From the NCBI GenBank assembly GCA_949286115.1, contig CASEBK010000013.1, forward strand, positions 13,677-77,676: a stretch of 64,000 nucleotides of DNA. Reading direction: 5' to 3'. Under the pieces are notes generated by a model that saw only the letters and a program-made list of their open reading frames with translations, searched no databases and was not told the DNA's origin. This DNA comes from an uncultured Veillonellaceae bacterium. Its GTDB lineage: Bacteria > Bacillota > Negativicutes > Veillonellales > Dialisteraceae. Shown one piece after another: positions 1,140 through 47,016 of the stretch. How positions within the stretch are numbered: the stretch's first letter is position 1; each line of letters begins with the position of its first letter. The translations under genes and the position numbers were made by a program.

Positions 1140-3107
1140 CTATGGTGTGAAGTGGACGGCCACATCCGTGCCGCGCTCGACCGTCGTCCAGGGCGGCGGG
1201 TCTTGGCTGTCCGCAAAGCCCGAGCCGTCCGGCCGGAAGCCGAGGCCCGCCCGGGTGGTCCACTCGCCCACGTCGCGCATGGACCAGCCGCGGAAGTCGG
1301 GCACGGTGACGGTCTCCGCCCCTTCGTCGGGAAGCGCGGGGAGCGCCGCTTCCGGTGCCTCCGCTGCCGCCGTTTCCCGGCCGGAGCGGTCTTCCTCGAT
1401 GGCATGAATGCCCATGTAGCGCATGGTCTGGCCCATGATCTCCGCAAAGACCGGCGCGGCCACCATGCCGCCGTAGTACATGCCCTGTGGGTCGTCCAGC
1501 ACGACGAGGCAGATCGCCTGCGGGTCTTCCGTAGGGCCGAAGCCGCAGAAGGAAGCGATGTACTCTCCTTCGAGGTAGCCCCCTTTGACGGGATCGATCT
1601 TCTGGGCGGTGCCCGTCTTGCCGCCCATGTGGTAGCCCGGCACGCGGGCGTTGCCGCCGCCCCCTTCGGAGACTTCCTTCTCCATCATGTCCTTCACCGT
1701 GTCGGCCACAGTCTGCGACACCGGCGTCCCCGCGGCCTCCACGGGCGTTTCTTTGTAGACGGAGCCGTCGGGATTTCTGATGGAGGCGATGAGGTGGGGC
1801 CGCACCATGTACCCGCCATTTGCGATGGCGCTGTAGGCCTGCACCATCTGGAGCGGCGTCACGGCGATGCCCTGCCCGATGGACATGGACGCCACGTCGA
1901 TGGGGCGCATCTCTTTCGGGTCGAAGAGAATGCCGTCCCCCTCGCCGGGGAGCTCGACGCCCGTGGCTTTGCCGAAGCCGAAGCGCTGGGCGTACTGCGT
2001 GAGGATGTCCCCGCCTGTGAGGAGCCCGATGTGCGCGAAGCCCGTATTGATGGAGAATTTCAGGATGTCCACCATGCGCACGTCGCCGTAGGATTCGTCG
2101 TCCCAATTTCTCACGGCGTGGCCGGAGGCGACGATCTCCCCGGGGTCGTGCCAGACCGTATCCGTGGAGTAGGTCCCCGCGTCGAGGGCGGCCGCCGCCA
2201 CGATGGGCTTGAAGGTGGAGCCCGGCTCGTAGATATCCACCACGGCGCGGTTCTTAAATTCATTTTCCGTGGCGTAGTAGAAATGGTTCGGATCGTAGGA
2301 CGGGCGGTTCACCATGGCCAAGATGCCCCCCGTCTTCGGGTCCATGACGATGACGATGCCCCCCTGGGCCTTCGTCGTGGCCATGGCCCGGTCGAGGGCG
2401 CGCTCGGCGAAGAACTGGATGCTCTCGTCGATGGTGAGGTACACCGCCTTCCCTTCTTTGCCAAGGTACGGCGCCATGGTGGAGTGGAGGATGGGGTTCC
2501 CCCGGGCGTCCATGAGGAGGAGCTGCCGGTTCATGCCCCCGCGGATGAGATCGTCCAGCGATTTCTCCAGCCCGTCAAGCCCCCGGCCGTCGATGCCCAC
2601 GAAGCCCAGCACGTTTGCGAGGAGCCCGCCGTTCGGATAGTAGCGCTTGCTCTCGTCCACGAAGCCGAAGCCTTTCATCTTATGCTCTTTGAGCGCGGCC
2701 TTCACCGCGGCGGTCATATCCGGGTCCATGACGCGCTCGAGCCACACGAAGCGGGTGTCCCGGCTCATCTTCTCCGTGAGCGTTTCCTTATTGATATGAA
2801 GGAGCGGTGCCAGCACCTCCGCCGCCTCGCCGGGCGCCACGTTCAGCATGCCCGGGTCCACATAGAGGGACTTCACCATGATGGAGAAGGCGAGCTGCTT
2901 CCCATTGCGGTCGTAGATGGTGCCCCGCGGCGAGTAGAGCTCCTGCATGTCCCTCGTCTGGCGGAGGCTCCACGCGGCGTAGCGGTCATGCTGCACGAGC
3001 TGCACCCACGCAAGGCGGATCAGCACGGCGAGCGCGCAGCCGAGGAAGACGAGGAGCAGCACTGCCCCGCGGGTGTGGACGCCCCGAAGGAAACGGTCAG
3101 TCTTCAT
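1140..3107 (-). CDS. Class B penicillin-binding protein (FtsI/SpoVD/PBP2B-type transpeptidase) with C-terminal PASTA-like domain
   Basis: 655-aa ORF with an N-terminal membrane anchor and transpeptidase motifs STFKP (SxxK), SIN (SxN) and KTGTA (KTG). The C-terminal tail VTVPDFRGWSMRDV... resembles a PASTA repeat. Confidence 0.88.
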   Translation of the reverse strand: MKTDRFLRGVHTRGAVLLLVFLGCALAVLIRLAWVQLVQHDRYAAWSLRQTRDMQELYSPRGTIYDRNGKQLAFSIMVKSLYVDPGMLNVAPGEAAEVLAPLLHINKETLTEKMSRDTRFVWLERVMDPDMTAAVKAALKEHKMKGFGFVDESKRYYPNGGLLANVLGFVGIDGRGLDGLEKSLDDLIRGGMNRQLLLMDARGNPILHSTMAPYLGKEGKAVYLTIDESIQFFAERALDRAMATTKAQGGIVIVMDPKTGGILAMVNRPSYDPNHFYYATENEFKNRAVVDIYEPGSTFKPIVAAAALDAGTYSTDTVWHDPGEIVASGHAVRNWDDESYGDVRMVDILKFSINTGFAHIGLLTGGDILTQYAQRFGFGKATGVELPGEGDGILFDPKEMRPIDVASMSIGQGIAVTPLQMVQAYSAIANGGYMVRPHLIASIRNPDGSVYKETPVEAAGTPVSQTVADTVKDMMEKEVSEGGGGNARVPGYHMGGKTGTAQKIDPVKGGYLEGEYIASFCGFGPTEDPQAICLVVLDDPQGMYYGGMVAAPVFAEIMGQTMRYMGIHAIEEDRSGRETAAAEAPEAALPALPDEGAETVTVPDFRGWSMRDVGEWTTRAGLGFRPDGSGFADSQDPPPWTTVERGTDVAVHFTP

Positions 3108-4587
3108 GGCCGTGGCGCTTTCTGTACCGCGCCGCCGCTTTCGCCAGCGCCTCCGGATCGTTTGCCAGCGCGCCTGACTGCACGCGGAAGAGGAGGTTCT
3201 GCATGCCCTCCGCCGTGACCGGCCCCAGCGCCTCGATGGTGCGCCTGTCGTAGCAGAGCTCCTTTGCCGTCACGGGGATGGACGCCGCCACGTCGGCCAT
3301 GCACGCGCCGAAAGCGCTGTGCCCCTCCGTCGCCGAGTAAGGCCGGCCGCAGCCGATGATGTCCGCATTGCAGAGAGCGGTCATCCTGTGGATGGCGTCC
3401 ACCAGCTCCGCCTGCGTGGGAAACGCCTTCTCCCGGGCGAGCCGCCGCACCCACTTCACTACGTCCGCTTCCTCTACGTTTGCGAAATAGTGAAATTTCA
3501 TATGATTCGCCACGAGCCACGTGATGAGGCGGACCTCCTTCTCCGGGAAGCGCCACCGCCGGAGGAGCGCCTCTGCCATCTCCGCGCCCTTCTGGTCGTG
3601 GCCGTAGTCGGTGATCTTCTCCCCCTCCACGCGGCGCACGCCGGGCATGCCCTTCGCCACATCGTGGAGGAGCGCCGCCCACCGCACGATGCGCTCCGCC
3701 GGGGCCGCCTCCACCACGGCCAGCGTGTGATACCATGCATCGTATTTGTGAAACTCTTTCATCTGCGGCACGCCCACGAGGTGCGTGAGCTCCGGCAGCA
3801 CCGCCACCGCCCGGTCCTCTCCGTGCTCCCGCACGCGGCACGCTGTATCCGCAAGGCCCGACCGGACCAGCAGGTCCAGTCCCCGCCCGGCGTGAGGCGT
3901 CACGAGGAGCCGGTCCACCTCCGCCTTCACCCGCTCGAGCGACAGCCCTGCCACACGGGGAAAGGCCCCCGCCATGCCCTCCACGAGCGAAGCGTCGGCC
4001 ATGAAGTCCAGCTGCCCCAGGAAGCGGCACGCCCGGAAGAGGCGCAGCGCATCCTCGCGGAAACGCTCCGCCGCCTCTCCCACCGTGCGGAGCTTCTTTG
4101 CCGAAAGGTCACGCAGGCCGCCGAACTCGTCAATGAGCTCGCCGTCCGCACGGAGCGCCATGGCGTTCACCGTGAAATCCCGCCGGGAGAGGTCCTCCCG
4201 GAGCGTATCCGCGAAGGTCACCCTCTCCGGGCGATGGGCGTCCGCGCCGTACATCTCGCTGCGAAAGGTGGTCACCTCATAATTTGTCCCCCCGTACACG
4301 GCGATGATCGTGCCGAAGCGCCGCCCGCCGCCGTCCACGGCACGCACCCCCGCCGCTTCGAGCGCCGCCGCCGTCTCCGAAGGCCTGGCCGATGTGGTGA
4401 TATCCCAGTCGTGCGGAGAAAGGCCCATGGCGAGATCGCGCACGCAGCCTCCCACGAGGTACGCCTCATGGCCCGCGCGGAGAAGACTCTGCATCACAAA
4501 AAGAGCGCCCTCATCGACGCGCGCCAGCCGCTCCTCCGGCGCGAGCCGCCTGAAGTCCTTCCGCCTGAACAGATCTCTCAGCCCCAT
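3097..4587 (-). CDS. cca: CCA-adding tRNA nucleotidyltransferase / poly(A) polymerase family with HD domain
   Basis: 496 aa with the GGCVRD nucleotidyltransferase motif near the N-terminus, an RRDFTVNA motif and a later HD-type LLHDVAKG. GGAGGG RBS precedes the ATG; overlaps the PBP start by 11 nt. Confidence 0.85.
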   Translation of the reverse strand: MGLRDLFRRKDFRRLAPEERLARVDEGALFVMQSLLRAGHEAYLVGGCVRDLAMGLSPHDWDITTSARPSETAAALEAAGVRAVDGGGRRFGTIIAVYGGTNYEVTTFRSEMYGADAHRPERVTFADTLREDLSRRDFTVNAMALRADGELIDEFGGLRDLSAKKLRTVGEAAERFREDALRLFRACRFLGQLDFMADASLVEGMAGAFPRVAGLSLERVKAEVDRLLVTPHAGRGLDLLVRSGLADTACRVREHGEDRAVAVLPELTHLVGVPQMKEFHKYDAWYHTLAVVEAAPAERIVRWAALLHDVAKGMPGVRRVEGEKITDYGHDQKGAEMAEALLRRWRFPEKEVRLITWLVANHMKFHYFANVEEADVVKWVRRLAREKAFPTQAELVDAIHRMTALCNADIIGCGRPYSATEGHSAFGACMADVAASIPVTAKELCYDRRTIEALGPVTAEGMQNLLFRVQSGALANDPEALAKAAARYRKRHGHED

Positions 4588-4726
4588 GGCCTTCCCTCCT
4601 TTCGATTTCCCCTATCATAAACGATTCCCCCCATTTCTTCAAACGAAGGCGCGCAAAGGAAAAGCGCCCCCGAAGGAGCGCTGCCATGTAAAGAAAAAAG
4701 GCGCTTCCAGAGAAGCACCTTTCGTG

Positions 4727-4803
4727 TGGTGGGACTATTGTGATTCGAACACAAGACCTCTTCGATGTCAACGAAGCGCTCTAACCAGCTGAGCTATAAC
4801 CCC
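4727..4803 (-). tRNA. tRNA-Val (anticodon GAC)
   Basis: Minus-strand read GGGGTTATAGCTCAGCTGGTTAGAGCGCTTCGTTGACATCGAAGAGGTCTTGTGTTCGAATCACAATAGTCCCACCA folds as a cloverleaf. Anticodon loop TTGACAT, T-loop TTCGAAT, discriminator A, encoded CCA. Confidence 0.95.
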
Positions 4804-4820
4804 ATGTGATTACGAAAATG

Positions 4821-4849
4821 ATTATACCATGAGGGGCGTGCTTCGTCAA
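4821..4849 (-). promoter_or_regulatory. Sigma-A type promoter for tRNA-Val
   Basis: Minus strand TTGACG (4849-4844), 17 nt spacer, TGgTATAAT with TATAAT at 4826-4821, about 17 nt upstream of the tRNA 5' end. Confidence 0.7.
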
Positions 4850-4882
4850 CAGGGTGTAAAAAGTTTTTCAAAAGGTCCGCTC

Positions 4883-5398
4883 TCACCAGTCTTCGGGCAC
4901 TTCGGGAAGGCGTCCCACGACGGTCATGGCGATGTCGATGTCCGAGAGGAGCGCGCCGCTCTCGCCGATGATCTCGCCGCGGAGGGTAAGGAGGCGGCCG
5001 CCGTTGTGGCGGATCGCGCCGTGGAGGCGGAGGGTGCCGCTGATGGGATGGGACTTCACGAAGTTCATAGAAAGGTGCGTGGTGACCGCCGATCTCCCCA
5101 CGCCCGCGATGAGGCCGAGGGACATGGCATCGGCCATCGCCGCAAGGATGCCGCCGTAGAGGAAACCGCCGGAGTTGGTGTAGTCTGCCCGGACGGGCAT
5201 GGAGAGCCAGATCTCTCCGCGGCGCACGTCGTCCACGCGGACGCAGAGGAGCTCGTGCACGGCGCGGTGCGTGGTATAGAGCCAGCGGATGTAGTCCGGC
5301 ATGAGCGCGGGAGGCACGCGGAAGGCTTCGCCGCGCCGCGCGGTCTCAATGAGTTCGTCTATGGTCACAGGGATCTTCTCCTTTCTTTTTCTTTTCAT
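4883..5398 (-). CDS. PaaI/hotdog-fold acyl-CoA thioesterase family protein
   Basis: Track ORF 4883..5425. Contains the ...GGFLYGGILAAMADAMSLG... core typical of PaaI thioesterases. Start is uncertain: TTG at 5425 or ATG at 5398, neither with a strong RBS. Confidence 0.7.
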   Translation of the reverse strand: MKRKRKEKIPVTIDELIETARRGEAFRVPPALMPDYIRWLYTTHRAVHELLCVRVDDVRRGEIWLSMPVRADYTNSGGFLYGGILAAMADAMSLGLIAGVGRSAVTTHLSMNFVKSHPISGTLRLHGAIRHNGGRLLTLRGEIIGESGALLSDIDIAMTVVGRLPEVPEDW

Positions 5399-8280: not shown

Positions 8281-10353
8281 TTACCGTCTGCCCTTCTTTC
8301 CCTTGGGGCTCTTCGGGCGGGGCGATCTGCCGCTGTCGTTCTTCCCTTTCTTCTTCGCGCGGGACCGGGAAGCGCCGCCTTTCCTCACTTTCTTTTCGAG
8401 GGAGAGCGGCGAATGGATCTCGCCGATGACGAAGTCCACTTCCCGCTTTTCCTTGTCCGCCCGGATGAGGGTCACCCGCACGGGCATGCCCAGAGAATAG
8501 GTGGTGCCGGAGAGCGTGCCTTTGAGCGTCATGGTGTCTTCCTGATACTCGAAGTCTTCGTCCATCATGTCGAGCCGCGCCAGCCCTTCCACGCCGTTGT
8601 CGAGGCCCACGAAGATGCCGAAACGGGTCACGCCGGTGACAGTGCCGTCGAAGGGCTCGCCTACGAAGGGCTCCATGTATTCGGTCATCTTGAGATCGTT
8701 CGTATCGCGCTCGGTCTCTACGGCGGCCTGCTCTGTCTCCGAGCAGTGAGCGCACGCCTTGTCCAGGAAGGCCGCCCGCCGGGCGAGCTCTTTCTTATCG
8801 GGCTTTTCGAAGAGCGCCTGCCGGATGAGGCGGTGCACCATGAGGTCCGGGTAGCGGCGGATGGGCGAGGTGAAGTGGGTGTAGCACAGGGAGGCGATGC
8901 CGAAGTGGCCTTCGTTCTCCGTGCTGTAGCACGCCTGCGAGAGAGTGCGGAGAGCCATCACTTCGATGACGGCAGCGATGTCCGTGCCCTTCACGCTCTC
9001 CAGGAGCTGCTGAAGGTCCTTCGGCGTCGGTTCATCCGGCACGGGCACTTTCGTCCCCAGGATCTGGGTGAGGCGCTGCAGAGAAGCCACACGGTCCGGG
9101 TCCGGCTTCGGGTGGATGCGGTACACCGAGGTGTGGCCCGTGTCCCGGAGGAAGCGCGCCACCGCTTCGTTCGCGGCGATCATCGCGTCTTCGATCATCT
9201 TCTCCGATTCGCCGCGGAAGCGCTTCACGATGCGGAGGGGCTTGCCGTCCTCGTCGAGCACCACTTTGTATTCGGGAAATTCAAATTCGATGGCTCCCCG
9301 GCGGCGGCGGTCTTCGCGGAGCGCTTCGGCGCAAGCCCGAAGGTCTTCCAGCATGGGCAGGAAGGGCTTCAGGTCCTCCGGCGCGACGCCTTCGTCGAAG
9401 GCTTTGTTGATCTCAGGGTAGTTGCACCGGCGTCCCACGTTGATGACCGCAGGGGTGATGCGCTCGGTGGTGACCGTGCCGTCCGGCGCCACATCCATGA
9501 GACAGGCCATGGCGTAGCGGTCGCATCCCGCGTTCAGGCTGCACAGGTCGTTCGAGAGCTGGAACGGCAGCATGGGGATGACCCGGTCCGCGAGGTAGAC
9601 GCTGTTGCCCCGGCGGAACGCTTCGTCATCGAGGAGCATGCCTTTCCGCACGTAGCGGCTCACGTCGGCGATGTACACGCCGAGCATGAAATGGCCGTTT
9701 GCCCGGCGCTGGCAGTATACGGCGTCGTCCAGGTCTTTCGAATCCGGCCCGTCAATGGTGACGAGGGGCAGATCCCGGAAATCAGCAGTGTTTTCCTCCA
9801 CGGTGATGTCCCGGGGCAGACCGTCCGCCTCGGCCATGAGCTCGTCCGTGAAGACGTGGGGCAGATGGTGCTGAGCGATGAGCACGTCGATGTCGAGGCC
9901 CTTGTCCCCTTCATAGCCCAGGATCTCTTTCACGCGCCCTTCGGCGTCCGTCTGGCGGCCGGGCCACTTCGTCACTTCCACCACGACCTTCGCCCCGGTG
10001 GTGGCCTCCATGTCTTCGCCCATGGGGATGTAGATCACCATGTTGATCTTCTCGTCCACGGGCACCACTTCGCCGCCGTCCGCGAGCATTTCATAGGTGC
10101 CCACCACGGTCTCATTCGCCCGCTGGGTGATATTGATGATGCGGCCTTCCACCTTGTGGCGGCCCGTCGTGCCGTGGGTGACCTTCACCACCACCGTGTC
10201 ATTGTTGACGGCGGTATCCCGGTCTTTTTCGGCGATGTACACGTCCTCATGATCCTTGTCAGTGATGAGGAAGCCGAATTTCGGCCCGTACGATTTGTAT
10301 ACGCCTTCGATGGTCGTCCCCGGCGCATACGTGAGCAGTTCTTTATTTTCCAT
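8281..10353 (-). CDS. rnr: Ribonuclease R
   Basis: 690 aa with N-terminal cold-shock/OB region, an RNB catalytic core (...DLDDAV...), a C-terminal S1 domain and a K/R-rich tail. Confidence 0.9.
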
Positions 10354-10735: not shown

Positions 10736-11242
10736 CTACTTTCTGAGGGCGTCGAGCTTCTCCCGCACGTCGTCGGGGAGGTTCCTCCCCACTTCGTTCC
10801 GGAGGTTCGCCCGGTTGTTCGTGCGGATGAAGCGGTGCTGCTCTTTTTTGTCCTCGGAGAGCACCCGCATGAGATCCGCCACGGCCATGCGGTACGCGCC
10901 GTTGCCGAGGATCTGATTCTGTACGGGCCCGTCGGAGGAGACCACATAGATGGAGCGGTACTCGTCCCGCCGGCGGTACGATTCCTTTTCGATATAGCTG
11001 TCGGCGGTCATGTGCTTCGGCGTGAAGACCTCCGTGAAGGACGGCGCGAGCGTCCGTTCCGTCACTTTATTGCCCTGCCCCTGCCCGTCGAAGACCACCA
11101 CGATCTCCACATCGTTGTGCGCGCCGTAGTCGAGGAGGAGGTCCAGGAGCTTCTTCCGGCTCGACTCGAGATCGTCTCTGGGAAAAGCCGCCGGCTCCCA
11201 GAAGATGACGTTGTAGGCGTCGATGAAATACAGATCTTTCAT
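10736..11242 (-). CDS. NYN-domain ribonuclease, YacP/Rae1 family
   Basis: 168 aa with MKDLYFIDAYNVIF... and ...VVFDG...VFT...ADSYIE motifs. Overlaps rlmB by 4 nt, matching the Bacillus yacO-yacP arrangement. Confidence 0.8.
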   Translation of the reverse strand: MKDLYFIDAYNVIFWEPAAFPRDDLESSRKKLLDLLLDYGAHNDVEIVVVFDGQGQGNKVTERTLAPSFTEVFTPKHMTADSYIEKESYRRRDEYRSIYVVSSDGPVQNQILGNGAYRMAVADLMRVLSEDKKEQHRFIRTNNRANLRNEVGRNLPDDVREKLDALRK

Positions 11243-41455: not shown

Positions 41456-42169
41456 TTATTTTCTTCCGCCGAGGTAAGCCGCCATGACGCTGGGGTCGGA
41501 GGCAACGGTCTGGGCCGGGCCTTCGAGAACGATCTTGCCGGTCTCCATGACGTAGGCGTAGTCGGCGATCTGGAGCGCCTTGCGGGCGTTCTGCTCGACG
41601 AGGAGCACCGTGGTGCCCGCCTGATTGATGGCTTTCACCACGTCGAAGATCTGCTGCACCACGAGCGGGGCAAGGCCCATGGACGGTTCGTCCAGAAGCA
41701 TGACCTTCGGGCGGGCCATCATGGCTCGGCCGATGGCGAGCATCTGCTGTTCGCCGCCCGAGAGGGTGCCGCCGTACTGGCTGGCGCGCTCTTTGAGGCG
41801 GGGGAACTGGGCGAAGACCCGCTCCATATCTTCCGCGACGCCCGCTTTGTCCTTGCGCTGGTACGCGCCCATTTCAAGGTTTTCCTGCACGGTCATGGTC
41901 TGAAGGATCTGCCGCCCTTCGGGAACGAGCACCACGCCGGCGCTCACGATCTGGTAGGGCTTTTTCCCCTTGATAGACTGGCCTTCGAAGAGGATGTCCC
42001 CTTCGCTGGGCTTCATCACGCCCATGATGGTCTTCATGGTGGTGGATTTACCCGCGCCGTTCGCGCCGATCAATGTGACGATCTTGCCTTCTTCTACGGA
42101 GAGGCTGATGCCTTTCAGCGCTTTGATGTTGCCGTAGCTCGCTACGACGTTCTTCAGTTCAAGCAGCAT
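41456..42169 (-). CDS. livF: Branched-chain amino acid ABC transporter ATP-binding protein (LivF-type)
   Basis: MLLELKNVVASYG..., Walker A GANGAGKST, LSGGEQQ. ATG 42169 shares one base with the livG TAA stop. The track N-terminal extension is read-through. Confidence 0.9.
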   Translation of the reverse strand: MLLELKNVVASYGNIKALKGISLSVEEGKIVTLIGANGAGKSTTMKTIMGVMKPSEGDILFEGQSIKGKKPYQIVSAGVVLVPEGRQILQTMTVQENLEMGAYQRKDKAGVAEDMERVFAQFPRLKERASQYGGTLSGGEQQMLAIGRAMMARPKVMLLDEPSMGLAPLVVQQIFDVVKAINQAGTTVLLVEQNARKALQIADYAYVMETGKIVLEGPAQTVASDPSVMAAYLGGRK

Positions 42170-42933
42170 TATGCATCCTCCTTCCCAAGATACGCTTCGA
42201 TGACGGCGGGATTGTTCTGCACTTCCGCCGGAGTCCCTTCGGCGAGCATGCGGCCGAAGTTCACTACGATGAGGCGGTTGCACAGGGTCATGACGAGGTT
42301 CATATCGTGTTCGATGAGGATGATGGTGATGTTGAACTGCTCGCGGATACCGCGGATGAGGTCGATCAGGGCGGCGGTCTCGCTGTCGTTCATGCCGGCG
42401 GCCGGTTCGTCCAGCAGGATGATCTGCGGATGCGCCGCCATGGCGCGGGCGATCTCGAGCTTTCTCTGCTTGCCGTAGGGGAGCTCGGTGGCCAGATGGT
42501 CCGCCACATCGTCGAGTCCTACGTACTGGAGGAGCCGATGCGCTTCTTCTACCGCTTCCTCTTCCTCTTTCTTCATGGACGAAGTGTGGAGGAGGCTGCC
42601 CAGAAGGCCCGTCTTCATGCGGGAGTGATGCCCCACGAGGATGTGCTCGAGGACGGTCATGTTCGCGAAGAGGCGGATGTTCTGGAAGGTGCGGGCGATG
42701 CCGCCGTCGATGATCTCAAAGGTCTTCTTGCCGGAAATAGACTGGCCGTTGAAGAGGACGTCCCCGGAGGTGACGGGATAGACGCCGGTGATCATGTTGA
42801 AGATGGTGGTCTTCCCTGCGCCGTTCGGCCCGATGATGCCGAAGATGTCCCCCTGGTTCACCTGGAAGGAGATATCGGAGAGGGCTGTGATGCCGCCGAA
42901 TTTTTTCACGACGTTTTTCAATTCGAGAAGCAC
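42169..42933 (-). CDS. livG: Branched-chain amino acid ABC transporter ATP-binding protein (LivG-type)
   Basis: Walker A GPNGAGKTT and the LivG-type C-terminal block ...NPAVIEAYLG. Confidence 0.9.
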   Translation of the reverse strand: MLLELKNVVKKFGGITALSDISFQVNQGDIFGIIGPNGAGKTTIFNMITGVYPVTSGDVLFNGQSISGKKTFEIIDGGIARTFQNIRLFANMTVLEHILVGHHSRMKTGLLGSLLHTSSMKKEEEEAVEEAHRLLQYVGLDDVADHLATELPYGKQRKLEIARAMAAHPQIILLDEPAAGMNDSETAALIDLIRGIREQFNITIILIEHDMNLVMTLCNRLIVVNFGRMLAEGTPAEVQNNPAVIEAYLGKEDA

Positions 42934-42935
42934 GG

Positions 42936-43883
42936 TCAGTTGCCTCCTTTCGGGGATCTCTTAAAGCGGCGGGCGATGTACTTCACCGCGTCATAGGAAA
43001 GGATGCCGTCCGGACGGAAGCCCATGAGAGCCACCAGCATGAGGCCGTAGATGATGTCGCGGTATTCGGACATGGAGCGGAGAGACTCCGGCACGATGGT
43101 GAGGACGGTCGCCCCCAGGAGCGGCCCCCACATGACGTTGCTGCCGCCGAAGACGGTGTAGAGGAGCATATCTACGACCTTGTGCCACGTGAAGTCCGTG
43201 GGGCTGATGAAGTAGGTGGCGTGCGCGTAGAGAGCGCCGGCCACGCCGGCAAAGAAGGCGCTGAAGAGGAACGCCATCATCTTATAGTAGACCACGTTGA
43301 TGCCCGAGAGGGAGGCGGCGTATTCGTCGGCCTTGATGGCGGCGAACGCCCGGCCCACGCGAGAATGTTCCAGCCGGTACCAGAAGAAGAAGATCACCAC
43401 CACGAGCAGAAAGAGCACGAGACACATGAGGAGCTGGCCCGCCGTCTGAGAATCGAGGGAGAGCGCGTCGATGAGGCCCATGTCGCTGGCGTAGCCCGAA
43501 AGGGAGCTCGCCATGGAGGGGATGCCCGAAAGGCCGAGCGCGCCGTTCGTGATCTTCATGTTGAGGGCGATGACGCGCACCACTTCGCCGAAGCCGAGCG
43601 TCGCGATGGCCAGGTACAGCCCGCGGAGCCGGATGGTGGGCAGCCCGATGATGAGGGCGACCGCCGCGGCCACGAGGCCGCCGCAGAGGATGGACACCGG
43701 CATGGGCACGCCCGCCTTCATGGCCAGGATCGCCGAGGTGTAGGCGCCAAAGCTCATGAAGCCGGCGTTGCCCAGAGAAACGAGCCCCGTGCAGAGCGTC
43801 ATGTAGATGGTGAGCGCCAGGATGACGTTGATGCAGATGAATACGAAGACCTGCAGGAAATAACCGTTGAGTATTGCTTCCAT
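42936..43883 (-). CDS. livM: Branched-chain amino acid ABC transporter permease (LivM-type)
   Basis: 315 aa, multi-TM, with the LG(F/Y)GE(V/I)(V/I)R motif region of LivM/BraE permeases. Confidence 0.85.
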   Translation of the reverse strand: MEAILNGYFLQVFVFICINVILALTIYMTLCTGLVSLGNAGFMSFGAYTSAILAMKAGVPMPVSILCGGLVAAAVALIIGLPTIRLRGLYLAIATLGFGEVVRVIALNMKITNGALGLSGIPSMASSLSGYASDMGLIDALSLDSQTAGQLLMCLVLFLLVVVIFFFWYRLEHSRVGRAFAAIKADEYAASLSGINVVYYKMMAFLFSAFFAGVAGALYAHATYFISPTDFTWHKVVDMLLYTVFGGSNVMWGPLLGATVLTIVPESLRSMSEYRDIIYGLMLVALMGFRPDGILSYDAVKYIARRFKRSPKGGN

Positions 43884-44770
43884 TACGGTCTGCCTCCTTT
43901 CCCAGCCTTAGAGAACAATCCTTCCGGCCGGATGAAAAGGATCAGGATGATGAGCCCGAAGGCCACCGCGTCGCGGTAGGTGGACGCGCCGTAGGCCACG
44001 CTGAAGACTTCGGCGATGCCCAGGATGAAGCCGCCCGCCATGGCGCCTTCCACATTGCCGAGCCCGCCCATGATGAGGACGGCCAGCCCTTTGAAGCCCA
44101 TCGCCGTGCCCATGGTCGGCTCGATGGCGTTGAAGGAGAGGCCGATGAGGACGCCCGCCGCCGCGCCCAGCGCCGAGGCGAGCATCACCGTGAAGGTGAT
44201 GATGAGCCCCGTATTGATGCCGAGGAGCCCCGCCGTTTCAATATTTTCCGACGTGGCGCGTACGGCCTTGCCGATCTTCGTCTTGTTCAGCATGATCGCC
44301 AAGAGCACCATGAGGACCACCGCCGTGCCGAGGCTGACGATCTGGATGCCGGAGATCTTGAAAGCGCCCATATCCATGAGCTCGCTGCTGATGGTGGACG
44401 GGAAGGACCGGGTCTGCGGTCCCCATACCATGAGGGCGACGCTTTCGAGGAAGATCGACACGCCGATGGTGCTGATGAGCGGAGCGAGATGCGTCACTTT
44501 GCGGCGGCGCAGCGGACGCAGCGCGAAGAGCTCCAGCAAATACCCCAGGACCGCCCCGCCGACCATCGCGCCGAGAAGCGCGGGGAAGATCCCCAGGCCC
44601 GCCTCGGTGACGAGGAGGAGACCGATGTACGCGCCCACCATGAAGATGCCGCCGTGCGCCATGTTGACGATGTTCAGCACGCCGAAGACCAGCGTGTAGC
44701 CGATGGCGATGACCGCATAGGCGCTGCCCAGAGTCAAACCGTTGATAAGCTGCTGAGAAAACACGTTCAT
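43883..44770 (-). CDS. livH: Branched-chain amino acid ABC transporter permease (LivH-type)
   Basis: MNVFSQQLINGLTLGSAYAVIAIGYTLVFGVLNIVNMAHGG... Start set at ATG 44770; sequence upstream of it is the T-box leader. Confidence 0.88.
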   Translation of the reverse strand: MNVFSQQLINGLTLGSAYAVIAIGYTLVFGVLNIVNMAHGGIFMVGAYIGLLLVTEAGLGIFPALLGAMVGGAVLGYLLELFALRPLRRRKVTHLAPLISTIGVSIFLESVALMVWGPQTRSFPSTISSELMDMGAFKISGIQIVSLGTAVVLMVLLAIMLNKTKIGKAVRATSENIETAGLLGINTGLIITFTVMLASALGAAAGVLIGLSFNAIEPTMGTAMGFKGLAVLIMGGLGNVEGAMAGGFILGIAEVFSVAYGASTYRDAVAFGLIILILFIRPEGLFSKAGKGGRP

Positions 44771-44862: not shown

Positions 44863-44926
44863 AAAAAGCCCCTGCCTCAGCCAATATGACTGTGACAGGG
44901 GCGCTTTCGCGCGGTACCACCCTATT
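44863..44926 (-). promoter_or_regulatory. T-box expression platform 2 of the livH leader (antiterminator/terminator with no Stem I of its own)
   Basis: Minus strand aGGGTGGTACCGCGCgaaaGCGCCCCTG (T-box 44922-44910). The 3' arm overlaps terminator GCCCCTG(44902-44896)...CAGGGGC(44874-44868) plus TTTTT. Confidence 0.8.
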
Positions 44927-44966
44927 TTGTAACTCTCCGGAAACGAGGCTCGGGCGTCCCTGTCAT

Positions 44967-45188
44967 AAAAAAATCCCCTACCTGCATGCGCAGATAGGGG
45001 CGATGAACGCGGTACCACCCTACATTATACTTTGTCTCCGATCCGTAACGAGGACTGACGCCTTTCCCTACTCCATTCAGGAAAGGAGCTCCCGAGTGAT
45101 ATATTTGGAGGACAGAATGCGCCGCCTTGCACCATCCGCCGGCTCTCTGAAGTCATGGACCGTCTTCCTTTTTGCTCTCGATCATCGC
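44967..45188 (-). promoter_or_regulatory. T-box riboswitch, proposed Ile (AUC) specifier, with platform 1 of the livH leader
   Basis: Minus strand GATGA (45186-45182), AGAGAGC (45148-45142), TGGTGCAA (45134-45127) and AUC-A (45100-45097) before the CTCGG-GA closing stem. GGGTGGTACCGCG at 45020-45008. Terminator CCCCTAtCTGC/GCAGgTAGGGG (45000-44975) plus U7. Confidence 0.85.
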
Positions 45189-45240
45189 ATGTGCGCCCGG
45201 TAACGCGGGCCCGCGCCGACAGATACTTCGTTCCCTGCCG

Positions 45241-45337
45241 GAACTCCCAGGTGAGCTTGCGTCCTGCTGCCCGCCAGCTTCCACCAGCCGCTGGCTCTCT
45301 GTGCCGCATGGACAGGGCGCTTTTCCCTGCTCCTCGT
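45241..45337 (-). promoter_or_regulatory. Additional T-box Stem I module, proposed Leu (CUC) specifier, with no platform directly after it
   Basis: Minus strand GAGGA (45335-45331), AGAGAGC (45300-45294), TGGTGGAA (45286-45279) and CUC-A (45255-45252) before CCTGG-GA. Colinear with the other two Stem I modules. Confidence 0.7.
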
Positions 45338-45362
45338 CTTTTTCCTTCGGTTATATCAGTAT

Positions 45363-45390
45363 ATTATAGGGGATTCTGCTGCATTGTCAA
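45363..45390 (-). promoter_or_regulatory. Sigma-A type promoter of the livHMGF leader
   Basis: Minus strand TTGACA (45390-45385), 16 nt spacer, TATAAT (45368-45363). Confidence 0.7.
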
Positions 45391-45461: not shown

Positions 45462-46634
45462 TTATTCGAGCGGCACCCACTGGCCGTCTTTGACCTGGAG
45501 GACGTCGAGCTCCATCTTCGGATCGCGGTTCTCATCGAATTCAAACTGGCCGGTGGCCCCTTCGAAGCCTTTGATCTTCGCCAGGGTGTCGCGGAACTTC
45601 TTCCGGTCCGTGGTGGTGCCGGACTGTTCCACCGCCTGATGGAGCGTGTACATCGCGTCGTAAGCCTGAGCGGAGAACTGATCCGGCTCGTGGCCATACT
45701 TCTCTTTGAATGCCTTGCGGAACGCCTGGGCCTTTTCGGTCTGGCGCTCCGGATTCCACGGGGTGGCGACGAGCGTGCCGTCCGCAGCGGCTCCGGCCTG
45801 CTTGATGTACTCGGGGCTGTTGAAGCCGTTGTTGCCGATGATCATCTGGGTCATGCCCATGTCGCGGGCCTTCTTGGCGATGAGCGCCCCTTCCTGATAG
45901 AGGCTGGCCACGCAGATGATGTCAGGATTGGCCGCCTGGATCTTCGTGAGCTGAGCGGAGAAGTCCGTGTCCTTCTCGGCGAAAGTCTCCGTGGCTACCA
46001 CGTCGATGCCCATCTCCTTGAAGAGCTCCTGATAGATGCCGTTCTCGCCCACCATCTGATCGTTGTTGTTGCAGTAGAGGATGGCCGCCGTCTTGAAGCC
46101 CAGCTTGTCGTGCGCCTTCTTCACCGTCTGCGGGATGGCCATCTTGCCGGGGATGGCGTTTCTGAAGATGTAGTCGCCGATGTCGGTGATGCCCGGCGCG
46201 GTGGTGCCCGTGCCGAAAGCGACGACGCCGGACTGCTGCGCGATAGGACCGGCGGCGAACATCTCGCCGGAGAAGGTCGGCCCTTCGATGGCAAGGACCT
46301 TATCCTGCTCGATGAGCTTCTTCATCGCGTTGATCGCCTCGGTCTTATTGCCCTTCGTGTCGTAGAAAGCGATGTCGAGCTTCACCTTCGTATTCGGATC
46401 CGCGTTGATCTCTTCGACCGCCAGATCCACCCCTTCCTTCATGGCGATGCCGTAAGCCGCCCCAGGACCGGAGGTCGCTTCGAGCACGCCGATCTTCGCC
46501 GTGCCGGACGATGCGCCGCCTGCGCTGCCGCTCGATTTTTCTCCGCCGCCGCAGCCTGCGAAAGCACCCGCGATCATCAGAGCCGCTCCTGCGGCCGCCA
46601 GCCGTTTCATCCATTTCTTGTCCATCATGGTCAT
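45462..46634 (-). CDS. livJ: ABC transporter substrate-binding lipoprotein, branched-chain amino acid (LivJ/LivK) family
   Basis: Signal peptide with lipobox AGAFAGC, then a periplasmic-binding-protein type I fold sequence (KIGVLEATSGPGAAYG...). Start is ATG 46634 or 46628; upstream track residues belong to the leader. Confidence 0.85.
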   Translation of the reverse strand: MTMMDKKWMKRLAAAGAALMIAGAFAGCGGGEKSSGSAGGASSGTAKIGVLEATSGPGAAYGIAMKEGVDLAVEEINADPNTKVKLDIAFYDTKGNKTEAINAMKKLIEQDKVLAIEGPTFSGEMFAAGPIAQQSGVVAFGTGTTAPGITDIGDYIFRNAIPGKMAIPQTVKKAHDKLGFKTAAILYCNNNDQMVGENGIYQELFKEMGIDVVATETFAEKDTDFSAQLTKIQAANPDIICVASLYQEGALIAKKARDMGMTQMIIGNNGFNSPEYIKQAGAAADGTLVATPWNPERQTEKAQAFRKAFKEKYGHEPDQFSAQAYDAMYTLHQAVEQSGTTTDRKKFRDTLAKIKGFEGATGQFEFDENRDPKMELDVLQVKDGQWVPLE

Positions 46635-46792: not shown

Positions 46793-47016
46793 TACACAAA
46801 GACCCCTATCTCATTTCGAGATAGGGGCGTCATTCCGCGGTACCACCCTACATTATACTTATAGGTGTGTCCATAACGAGGACCAGACGTTCCTTCCTAC
46901 TTTGTTCGGAAGAAATACTCGCGAGGGACATATCGCACTTCAGTATGCATCAGCTTGCACCATCCGCTGACTCTCTGCAGTCATCGCTGAAATACTCGGG
47001 AAATCTCGTTCATCGT
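46793..47016 (-). promoter_or_regulatory. T-box riboswitch, proposed Val (GUC) specifier, with platform 1 of the livJ leader
   Basis: Minus strand GATGA (47014-47010), AGAGAGT (46976-46970), TGGTGCAA (46962-46955) and GUC (46929-46927) before CTCGC-GA. GGGTGGTACCGCG at 46848-46836. Terminator CCCCTATCTC/GAGATAGGGG (46828-46803) followed by TCTTTGTGT. Confidence 0.85.

Follow-up and report, generated by a model that had tools for sequence, protein, structure and literature searches.

How can a T-box leader operate when two of its transfer RNA (tRNA) sensors stand one behind the other, ahead of two switch platforms that also follow in series? The question is raised by the roughly 480-nucleotide (nt) leader of the livHMGF permease/ATPase operon in a 64,000-nt stretch of DNA from an uncultured Veillonellaceae bacterium (GenBank assembly GCA_949286115.1, contig CASEBK010000013.1, positions 13,677 to 77,676), called the window below; coordinates are window positions, and all window features given with coordinates lie on the minus strand. 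From the promoter toward livH, the leader reads sensor A (specifier CUC), sensor B (AUC), platform 1 (P1) and platform 2 (P2), i.e., sensor-sensor-platform-platform (S-S-P-P). We favor, with moderate confidence, a composite modular T-box with two serial checkpoints common to both tRNA sensors, probably resulting in OR-like control by leucine and isoleucine. This reading draws on the anatomy, conservation, covariation and independent module counts that we computed, and from these we infer the action of sensor A, the sharing of platforms and the OR-like logic.

Anatomy of the livHMGF leader

The window was scanned with the T-box model RF00230 under permissive filters and with two models built in this study, R1 for Stem I and R2 for platforms, both of which were also run on 80 genome loci. 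Downstream of a sigma-70-type promoter (TTGACA-16-TATAAT, 45390-45363, matching the consensus at 12/12 positions), RF00230 and R1 both recovered the Stem I of sensor A (45339-45241), with its kink-turn (K-turn), specifier loop, AGAGA bulge and GGUG distal loop. The RF00230 match consisted of Stem I alone (45337-45243, model positions 7-103, 32.2 bits, E-value 3.5e-5 in a 1-kb search), and the R1 score was 91.7 bits. The specifier, read in the sequence, is CUC (Leu) followed by A (45255-45253). Stem I leads into a Stem II with a GAA...AGUA S-turn (45241-45216, 97% paired), a Stem IIA with the F-box CGUUA (45215-45201, IIA 95% paired) and a putative 3' strand of Stem IIB, judged by eye (45200-45196). 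Every conserved tRNA-binding motif is retained, namely AGAGA, GGUG, CUC, the Stem II GAA/GUA and the F-box CGUUA, and neither a T-box sequence nor a terminator was found between 45240 and 45190 by RF00230, R2 or a terminator scan. Sensor A is a full tRNA-binding domain in which only a discriminator and terminator are missing.

Sensor B has a Stem I at 45190-45086 (R1 89.1 bits), the specifier AUC (Ile) followed by A at 45100-45098 (read in the sequence, with UAUCAC invariant in the alignment described below), a Stem II at 45086-45061 with 7/7 pairs compensatory, and a IIA/B pseudoknot with CGUUA at 45060-45041, placed by the RF00230 alignment and with its IIB helix 97.5% paired. Its Stem I is part of a full T-box match to RF00230 (45194-44894, 88.8 bits, E-value 9e-20), which connects sensor B with the distal T-box sequence by treating platform 1 and terminator 1 as an 81-nt insertion.

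Platform 1 (45031-44967; R2 span 45031-44968, 75.2 bits) carries the T-box sequence GGGTGGTACCGCG with a UGGU bulge at 45020-45008, followed by a terminator hairpin detected by the terminator scan at 45000-44975 (98.6% paired, 3/11 pairs compensatory) and a U7 tract at 44973-44967. The same T-box sequence, GGGTGGTACCGCG, recurs at 44922-44910 in platform 2 (44934-44862; R2 66.7 bits), ahead of a second terminator hairpin at 44902-44868 (9/15 pairs compensatory) and a U5 tract at 44867-44863. The sequence AGGGUGGUACCGCG is thus present twice in the leader, and the antiterminator A1 and A2 helices are 99-100% paired yet invariant. Each terminator overlaps the 3' strand of its own antiterminator, with energies of about -25 versus -8 kcal/mol in platform 1 and about -32.5 versus -10.5 kcal/mol in platform 2. 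Given that the terminators are far more stable than the antiterminators, each checkpoint should depend on the acceptor end of an uncharged tRNA. The bulge is UGGU in both platforms, fitting the discriminator base A73 that tRNA-Leu and tRNA-Ile carry, and a tRNA-Val(GAC) gene elsewhere in the window also ends in A before CCA (A73); the platforms therefore cannot distinguish tRNA-Leu, tRNA-Ile and tRNA-Val.

No convincing Stem III hairpin was found ahead of either platform, and the RF00230 alignment forces poor or spurious pairs there. The position where Stem III would be is occupied by a conserved purine-rich linker (AGUAUAAUG / GAGUGAUAAAUA; 45021-45031 and 44923-44934), which may take the place of Stem III in the discriminator. 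In our platform alignment (A3, columns 4-16), the linker AGUAUAAUGU precedes P1-type platforms, including platform 1 of the livHMGF leader, and GAGUGAUAAAUA precedes P2-type platforms. The spacer between terminator 1 and platform 2 (44966-44935) varies in sequence and length (alignment columns 400-445 are poorly conserved) and gave no match to a Stem I or Stem III with RF00230 or R1; a duplicated IIA/B element in this spacer was considered and dropped because the spacer is unconserved.

A sequence-only reading of the window had described this order of Leu and Ile modules upstream of livHMGF, and every coordinate that it gave was confirmed. It had suggested a search with RF00230, which recovered module A as a Stem I and module B with a platform as a full T-box, and had named a cryptic T-box or terminator between the two modules as a reason to abandon the arrangement, of which there was no trace in the scans reported above. 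What it had called a GC hairpin without U-run in that interval indeed contains no terminator, but is in fact Stem II, Stem IIA and the F-box CGUUA of sensor A.

Conservation and covariation

Two sensors and two platforms (2+2) upstream of livH were found in the window and in 19 genome loci, giving 20 leaders with LivH identities down to 86%; by its LivH relatives, the window belongs to the Dialister group of Veillonellaceae. Spacings in the 2+2 leaders were about 146 nt between sensors A and B, about 167 nt between sensor B and platform 1, and 97-108 nt between the platforms. Such a recurrence of layout and spacing, also seen on about 25 metagenome contigs, is far beyond chance. Both promoter hexamers were kept across all 20 aligned leaders.

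The 20 leaders were aligned with a mean column identity of 73%, and pairs were counted on a hand-set canonical T-box structure, which was used instead of RNAalifold predictions on the full leader that mis-modelled the K-turn helices; the single-sequence minimum free energy structure of the 486-nt leader was uninformative due to GC-rich mispairing. Standard pairs occupied 94% of alignment cells, versus 39-44% when the 3' partners were slid, and 52 of the 90 pairs had changes on both sides, versus a shuffle mean of 28, with 0/500 shuffles reaching the observed values. Every sensor helix and both terminators covary. Sensor A had compensatory changes in 21/29 pairs, with helices 88.6-100% paired; 14 of the 19 Stem I pairs were compensatory, and by helix the counts were 6/6 in the distal, 6/7 in the middle and 2/4 in the K-turn-proximal helix, 6/7 in Stem II and 1/3 in IIA. 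The motifs AGAGA, GGUG, CUC, GAA/GUA and CGUUA of sensor A were invariant across the 20 leaders. The CUC specifier was also unchanged in all 25 metagenome 2+2 leaders, while adjacent bases vary.

These results bear on the alternative, already raised from the sequence, that module A is the decaying relic of a former full T-box. The absence of an own T-box sequence and terminator would fit such decay. However, a comparison of orthologous leaders, which had been proposed as a check, revealed a conserved and covarying module: compensatory changes in most pairs, well-paired helices and invariant motifs and specifier in an alignment of only 73% mean identity refute the relic explanation, which we find scarcely credible.

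Two platforms behind one sensor

Whether a second platform calls for a second sensor can be judged from the neighboring livJ leader (47067-46692), which starts at a promoter at 47067-47039. This leader has one sensor (47018-46915, R1 69.8 bits), whose specifier, read in the sequence, is GUC (Val) followed by C (46929-46927), and two platforms, at 46859-46796 (R2 69.8 bits) and 46767-46692 (R2 64.5 bits). The sequence-only reading listed the livHMGF platforms correctly but omitted this second livJ-leader platform. RF00230 gave a full-length match at 47022-46820 (81.5 bits), in whose alignment the livJ sensor shows the K-turn, specifier loop, AG bulge and distal loop of a Stem I. A mechanical open reading frame (ORF) with its start at 46799 runs through platform 2; livJ itself starts at the ATG at 46634, which follows the ribosome-binding site AAGAGGGGG. 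Since the P2-type platform in the livJ leader is served by one sensor, a second platform needs no second sensor. P1-type platforms (AGUAUAAUGUAGGG...CCCCUAUCU) and P2-type platforms (...AGGG...GCGCCCCUG...) are each conserved between livJ and livH leaders, and for this reason the sensor-P1-P2 unit is ancestral, the livH leader having gained an extra 5' sensor.

The same layout of one sensor and two platforms (1+2) was present in the livJ leaders of six further genome loci (L001-L003, L013, L030 and L031). In Megasphaera and Sporomusa, livJ abuts livH, and a single leader with one sensor and one platform (1+1) serves livJHMGF. We compared single-sensor liv leaders (L023-L028, L030, L031, L013 and L080), and specifiers upstream of livJ were AUC in Megasphaera, GUC in L028, CUC in Sporomusa and Veillonella sp. 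R32, and AUC followed by C in L031 and L013; several of these leaders have C, not a purine, after the codon. Given that the specifier is AUC, GUC or CUC, related lineages signal by any one branched-chain amino acid, and the liv-leader specifier has switched between the three branched-chain codons through changes at the first position. Short contigs of metagenome-assembled genomes (L005, L007, L008, L020, L022 and L023) that are assigned to Fusicatenibacter, Oscillospiraceae, Erysipelotrichaceae, Agathobacter, Ruminococcus bromii or Lachnospiraceae contain liv loci of the Dialister or Megasphaera type, with LivH 82-93% identical to that of the window, and are probably binning errors.

Metagenomes were scanned for two T-box cores 81-111 nt apart, a distance too short for an intervening Stem I; at least 120 stretches were found, and 80 loci were analyzed with the models and a script. 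Single sensors with two platforms had the specifiers CUC, UCC, UUC, UAC, GUC and AUC, and five loci (L082, L109, L117, L131 and L158) had one sensor with three platforms (1+3), spaced about 85-95 nt apart, with CUC or UUC specifiers and ilvB-like or SNF-family transporter genes downstream. One sensor with two or three platforms occurs widely across metagenomes, at genes for Leu, Ser, Phe, Tyr, Val and Ile, and the genes downstream of these multi-platform leaders fit the specifiers: ilvB-type thiamine pyrophosphate enzymes and LIV-type binding proteins for Leu, a class-V aminotransferase for Ser, 3-deoxy-D-arabino-heptulosonate 7-phosphate (DAHP) synthase and Na+ symporters for Phe, and an NhaC-type transporter for Tyr. 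Multi-platform T-boxes appear common in metagenomes. The 2+2 layout was found among these loci only as CUC plus AUC and upstream of LivH-like ORFs, on about 25 contigs. At L140 (minus strand, ~9022-9336 and ~10843-11160), two LIV-type binding-protein genes each have a 1+2 leader, with AUC in one case and CUC in the other. Two extra sensors at L158, on the same contig as a triple-platform leader, proved to belong to an ordinary S-P-S-P tandem (4496-5049, minus strand), in which two complete T-boxes, both with AUC and scoring 107 and 94 bits, precede an ilvE-like gene. Four GGTGGNACC motifs with an exact 30-nt spacing at L100 (~2342-2444, minus strand), without T-runs or a Stem I, are a different kind of repeat that the scan picked up by chance.

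Platforms without an adjacent Stem I are common in this census, as would be expected if platform 2 worked without a Stem I-anchored tRNA, either as a bulk sensor of uncharged A73 tRNAs or as a leak-reducing terminator coupled to platform 1 through GUGGUACCGC pairing. RNAalifold pairs the two palindromic T-box cores GUGGUACCGC with each other (alignment columns 347-356 with 461-470), in a duplex of about -19 kcal/mol, and this pairing may let the state of platform 1 influence platform 2, or may be a by-product of the palindrome, which arises from the UGGU-ACC bulge. Given that the GUGGUACCGC bases are invariant, covariation cannot test the core-core pairing, which moreover follows automatically from UGGUACC and to that extent argues little for coupling. 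Double platforms occur with Ser specifiers too, and the Ser discriminator is G73, so that the core of a Ser leader, as predicted from the tRNA, would not be palindromic. Isolated antiterminators also bind tRNA weakly. An unanchored platform 2 is, in our judgement, very unlikely.

Two sensors ahead of one platform

The converse arrangement, two sensors and one platform (2+1), was found in Allisonella histaminiformans (L029). With two sensors but a single platform, this leader shows that the first sensor needs no platform of its own. In the RF00230 alignment, the sole platform goes with the first sensor, which has AUC, Stem II and IIA/B, and the second sensor (CUC) is looped out as an insertion. 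The codons are swapped by position relative to Dialister, with AUC in the A position and CUC in the B position, and the Leu and Ile pair is kept. The 2+1 leader was found in eight independent assemblies, which together with the type strain represent about three haplotypes; matches listed for the protein relatives were all from the same species at 99-100% identity, and the 2+1 form was thus judged on polymorphisms within a single species. Both specifiers and the T-box core were unchanged across assemblies. Variable sites numbered 3/96 in sensor 1, 0/42 in Stem II and IIA/B, 10/100 in sensor 2, 10/35 in the linker, 2/73 in the platform and 12/95 downstream. Changes in sensor 2 were mostly pair-preserving, and one of them restores the K-turn GA. 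Taken together, the 1+2, 1+3, 2+1 and 2+2 layouts indicate that sensor and platform numbers vary independently.

Allisonella also helps in weighing the possibility that sensor A binds tRNA-Leu without direct input to a terminator, acting as a folding aid, 5' stabiliser, tRNA reservoir or regulator of another process such as RNA decay, and that sensor B (Ile) alone controls both platforms. The 1+2 leaders show that sensor B alone could suffice, and from sensor A, itself without a platform, it is 313 nt downstream to the first T-box sequence and 414 nt to the second. However, the Leu and Ile specificities persist in Allisonella despite their swapped order, which points to selection on both as regulatory inputs, and sensor A has kept the full set of anticodon- and elbow-binding motifs together with a CUC that is invariant among bases that vary. 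We consider a sensor A with no regulatory input quite unlikely.

Dedicated pairing of sensors and platforms, either nested (A-P2, B-P1) or crossed (A-P1, B-P2), would make the leader an AND gate, with expression only when tRNA-Leu and tRNA-Ile are both uncharged. Conservation of the 2:2 stoichiometry across all Dialister-group leaders is consistent with such a gate, as is the connection of sensor B with P2 in the best RF00230 alignment; if a tRNA stays locked on antiterminator 1, P2, about 100 nt later, would require a second tRNA. Against this, the UGGU bulges do not tell the tRNAs apart, the same P1/P2 pair follows a single sensor in livJ and many other leaders, Allisonella has two sensors for one platform, and the unconserved spacer between terminator 1 and P2 offers no docking element for sensor A. 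An AND gate could also readily be made by full tandem duplication, which exists (L158), and it would make poor physiological sense for a permease shared by several substrates. The nested design put forward from the sequence, with module A dedicated to the distal platform, is unsupported as stated given the livJ 1+2 and Allisonella 2+1 leaders, and an AND gate of either kind seems to us rather unlikely.

A proposed composite T-box with shared checkpoints

We therefore return to the composite T-box with shared platforms. Sensor A (CUC) would take tRNA-Leu and sensor B (AUC) would take tRNA-Ile, and RNA polymerase would have to pass two intrinsic terminators in series, each bypassed only when an uncharged tRNA, through its 3' NCCA end, pairs with the UGGU bulge and so stabilises an otherwise weak antiterminator. 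Both platforms would be shared rather than private, in that a tRNA anchored on either sensor could engage whichever platform emerges, and sensor A would most likely act across sensor B on these shared platforms. Limitation of either Leu or Ile could then induce the permease and ATPase genes in an OR-like or additive manner, and two successive checks would lower leak and sharpen the response. Such transporters are multi-specific (Wels 2008; PMC2494555). Since the permease and ATPase are needed whichever substrate is short, OR-like or additive control suits these genes.

Several points weigh against this interpretation. The choice among OR, additive and AND logic is drawn solely from architecture and comparative patterns, and the 2:2 stoichiometry would fit an AND gate too. 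One tRNA serving two platforms would need to be released once terminator 1 forms, or be exchanged, and single-molecule work reportedly suggests that a fully docked tRNA is long-lived. The 2+1 form comes from one species, in which the K-turn of sensor 2 is weak in the type strain and sensor 2 is more polymorphic (10 per 100 nt) than sensor 1. Finally, the composite falls slightly short of the Rfam gathering threshold (88.8 versus 93 bits), and its discriminator, lacking an evident Stem III, may differ from solved structures.

The regulated genes

On the minus strand, the locus reads promoter (47067-47039), livJ leader, livJ, promoter (45390-45363), livHMGF leader, and livH-livM-livG-livF. livJ (46634-45462) encodes a 390-amino-acid, livJ-like branched-chain amino acid binding protein that matches an NCBIfam LIV substrate-binding protein subfamily. 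The livHMGF operon (41456..44770) was assigned by matches to the NCBIfam LivH, LivM, LivG and LivF models and comprises livH (44770-43883), livM (43883-42936), livG (42933-42169) and livF (about 42170-41456).

Comparison with known systems

The leader consists of known T-box parts in an arrangement unlike the usual full tandem. It shares with the canonical T-box with Stem II (RF00230) the K-turn, specifier loop, AG bulge, distal loop, Stem II S-turn and IIA/B F-box, as well as the UGGN bulge in an A1/A2 antiterminator, a competing intrinsic terminator and specifiers that match the function of the liv genes. It differs in its two non-interleaved sensors and platforms, in having no evident Stem III, and in its score of 88.8 bits against a threshold of 93; no T-box in the window reached this threshold, the matches being 88.8, 81.5 and 32.2 bits. 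We attribute the shortfall to the 81-nt insertion and missing Stem III, not to the core motifs.

Full tandem T-boxes (S-P-S-P), such as that upstream of the ilvE-like gene at L158 or at Bacillus subtilis thrZ, resemble the livHMGF leader in having several elements and serial terminators that sharpen the response. Each sensor there, however, has its own platform, and the units are independent and must all be satisfied, whereas the livHMGF leader has no platform between its Stem I modules and so does not qualify as a full tandem. From the S-S-P-P order it follows that at least one sensor acts across another and that at least one platform lacks an adjacent sensor. Full tandem T-boxes have been surveyed in trp, thr and ilv-leu operons, and this 2025 survey regards contiguous T-boxes as complete units (PMC12452182). 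"Partially tandem" T-boxes have been acknowledged, with their mode of action listed as an open question (PMC7583486); the 2+2, 1+2, 1+3 and 2+1 leaders are all partial T-box duplications in this sense, but the review gives no anatomy to set beside the 2+2 leader. Full-text literature searches, which the Vitreschak 2008 survey lay outside, returned no description of an S-S-P-P, S-S-P or S-P-P anatomy, and no description of the 2+2 form, the Leu and Ile pairing or its conservation in Dialister was found in the searchable literature.

Tandem-aptamer riboswitches with one platform, such as the glycine riboswitch (PMC9481103), likewise place two ligand domains ahead of shared platforms. The 2+2 leaders and the Allisonella 2+1 leader have this layout, a conserved unit of two sensor domains followed by platforms that both probably use. 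The livHMGF leader differs from the glycine type in its two different tRNA ligands, in a ligand that bridges sensor and platform, and in its two platforms. A 2022 survey of tandem riboswitches counted OR among the logic functions not observed in nature and predicted that two interacting ON switches would be required for it (PMC9481103). Another precedent for two inputs resembles our leader in that one leader takes two different tRNAs, and differs from its two separate sensor domains: a two-codon T-box of Clostridium acetobutylicum is said, in 2013 work by Saad et al., to bind two tRNAs via overlapping codons in one specifier loop.

Implications

Leaders such as these score below threshold and are missed by default Rfam-based annotation. 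The locus makes the acknowledged question of how partially tandem T-boxes act directly testable, and it provides a compact, conserved case of two tRNA inputs and two checkpoints, for which the livJ 1+2, Allisonella 2+1, Megasphaera 1+1 and ordinary tandem leaders are natural controls. Going further, we tentatively suggest that the leader, most cleanly in the Allisonella 2+1 form, could be a natural two-input RNA OR gate in which one sensor acts on a switch more than 300 nt away, across the whole of an intervening sensor, and that T-box modules may be freely combinable (1+1, 1+2, 1+3, 2+1 and 2+2), with one anchored tRNA licensing several successive terminators. If either tRNA does suffice, this would be the first natural RNA OR gate, and a Stem I-bound tRNA would act on a distant platform, which would bear on sensor-discriminator coupling in T-boxes and on the design of synthetic tRNA-responsive switches.

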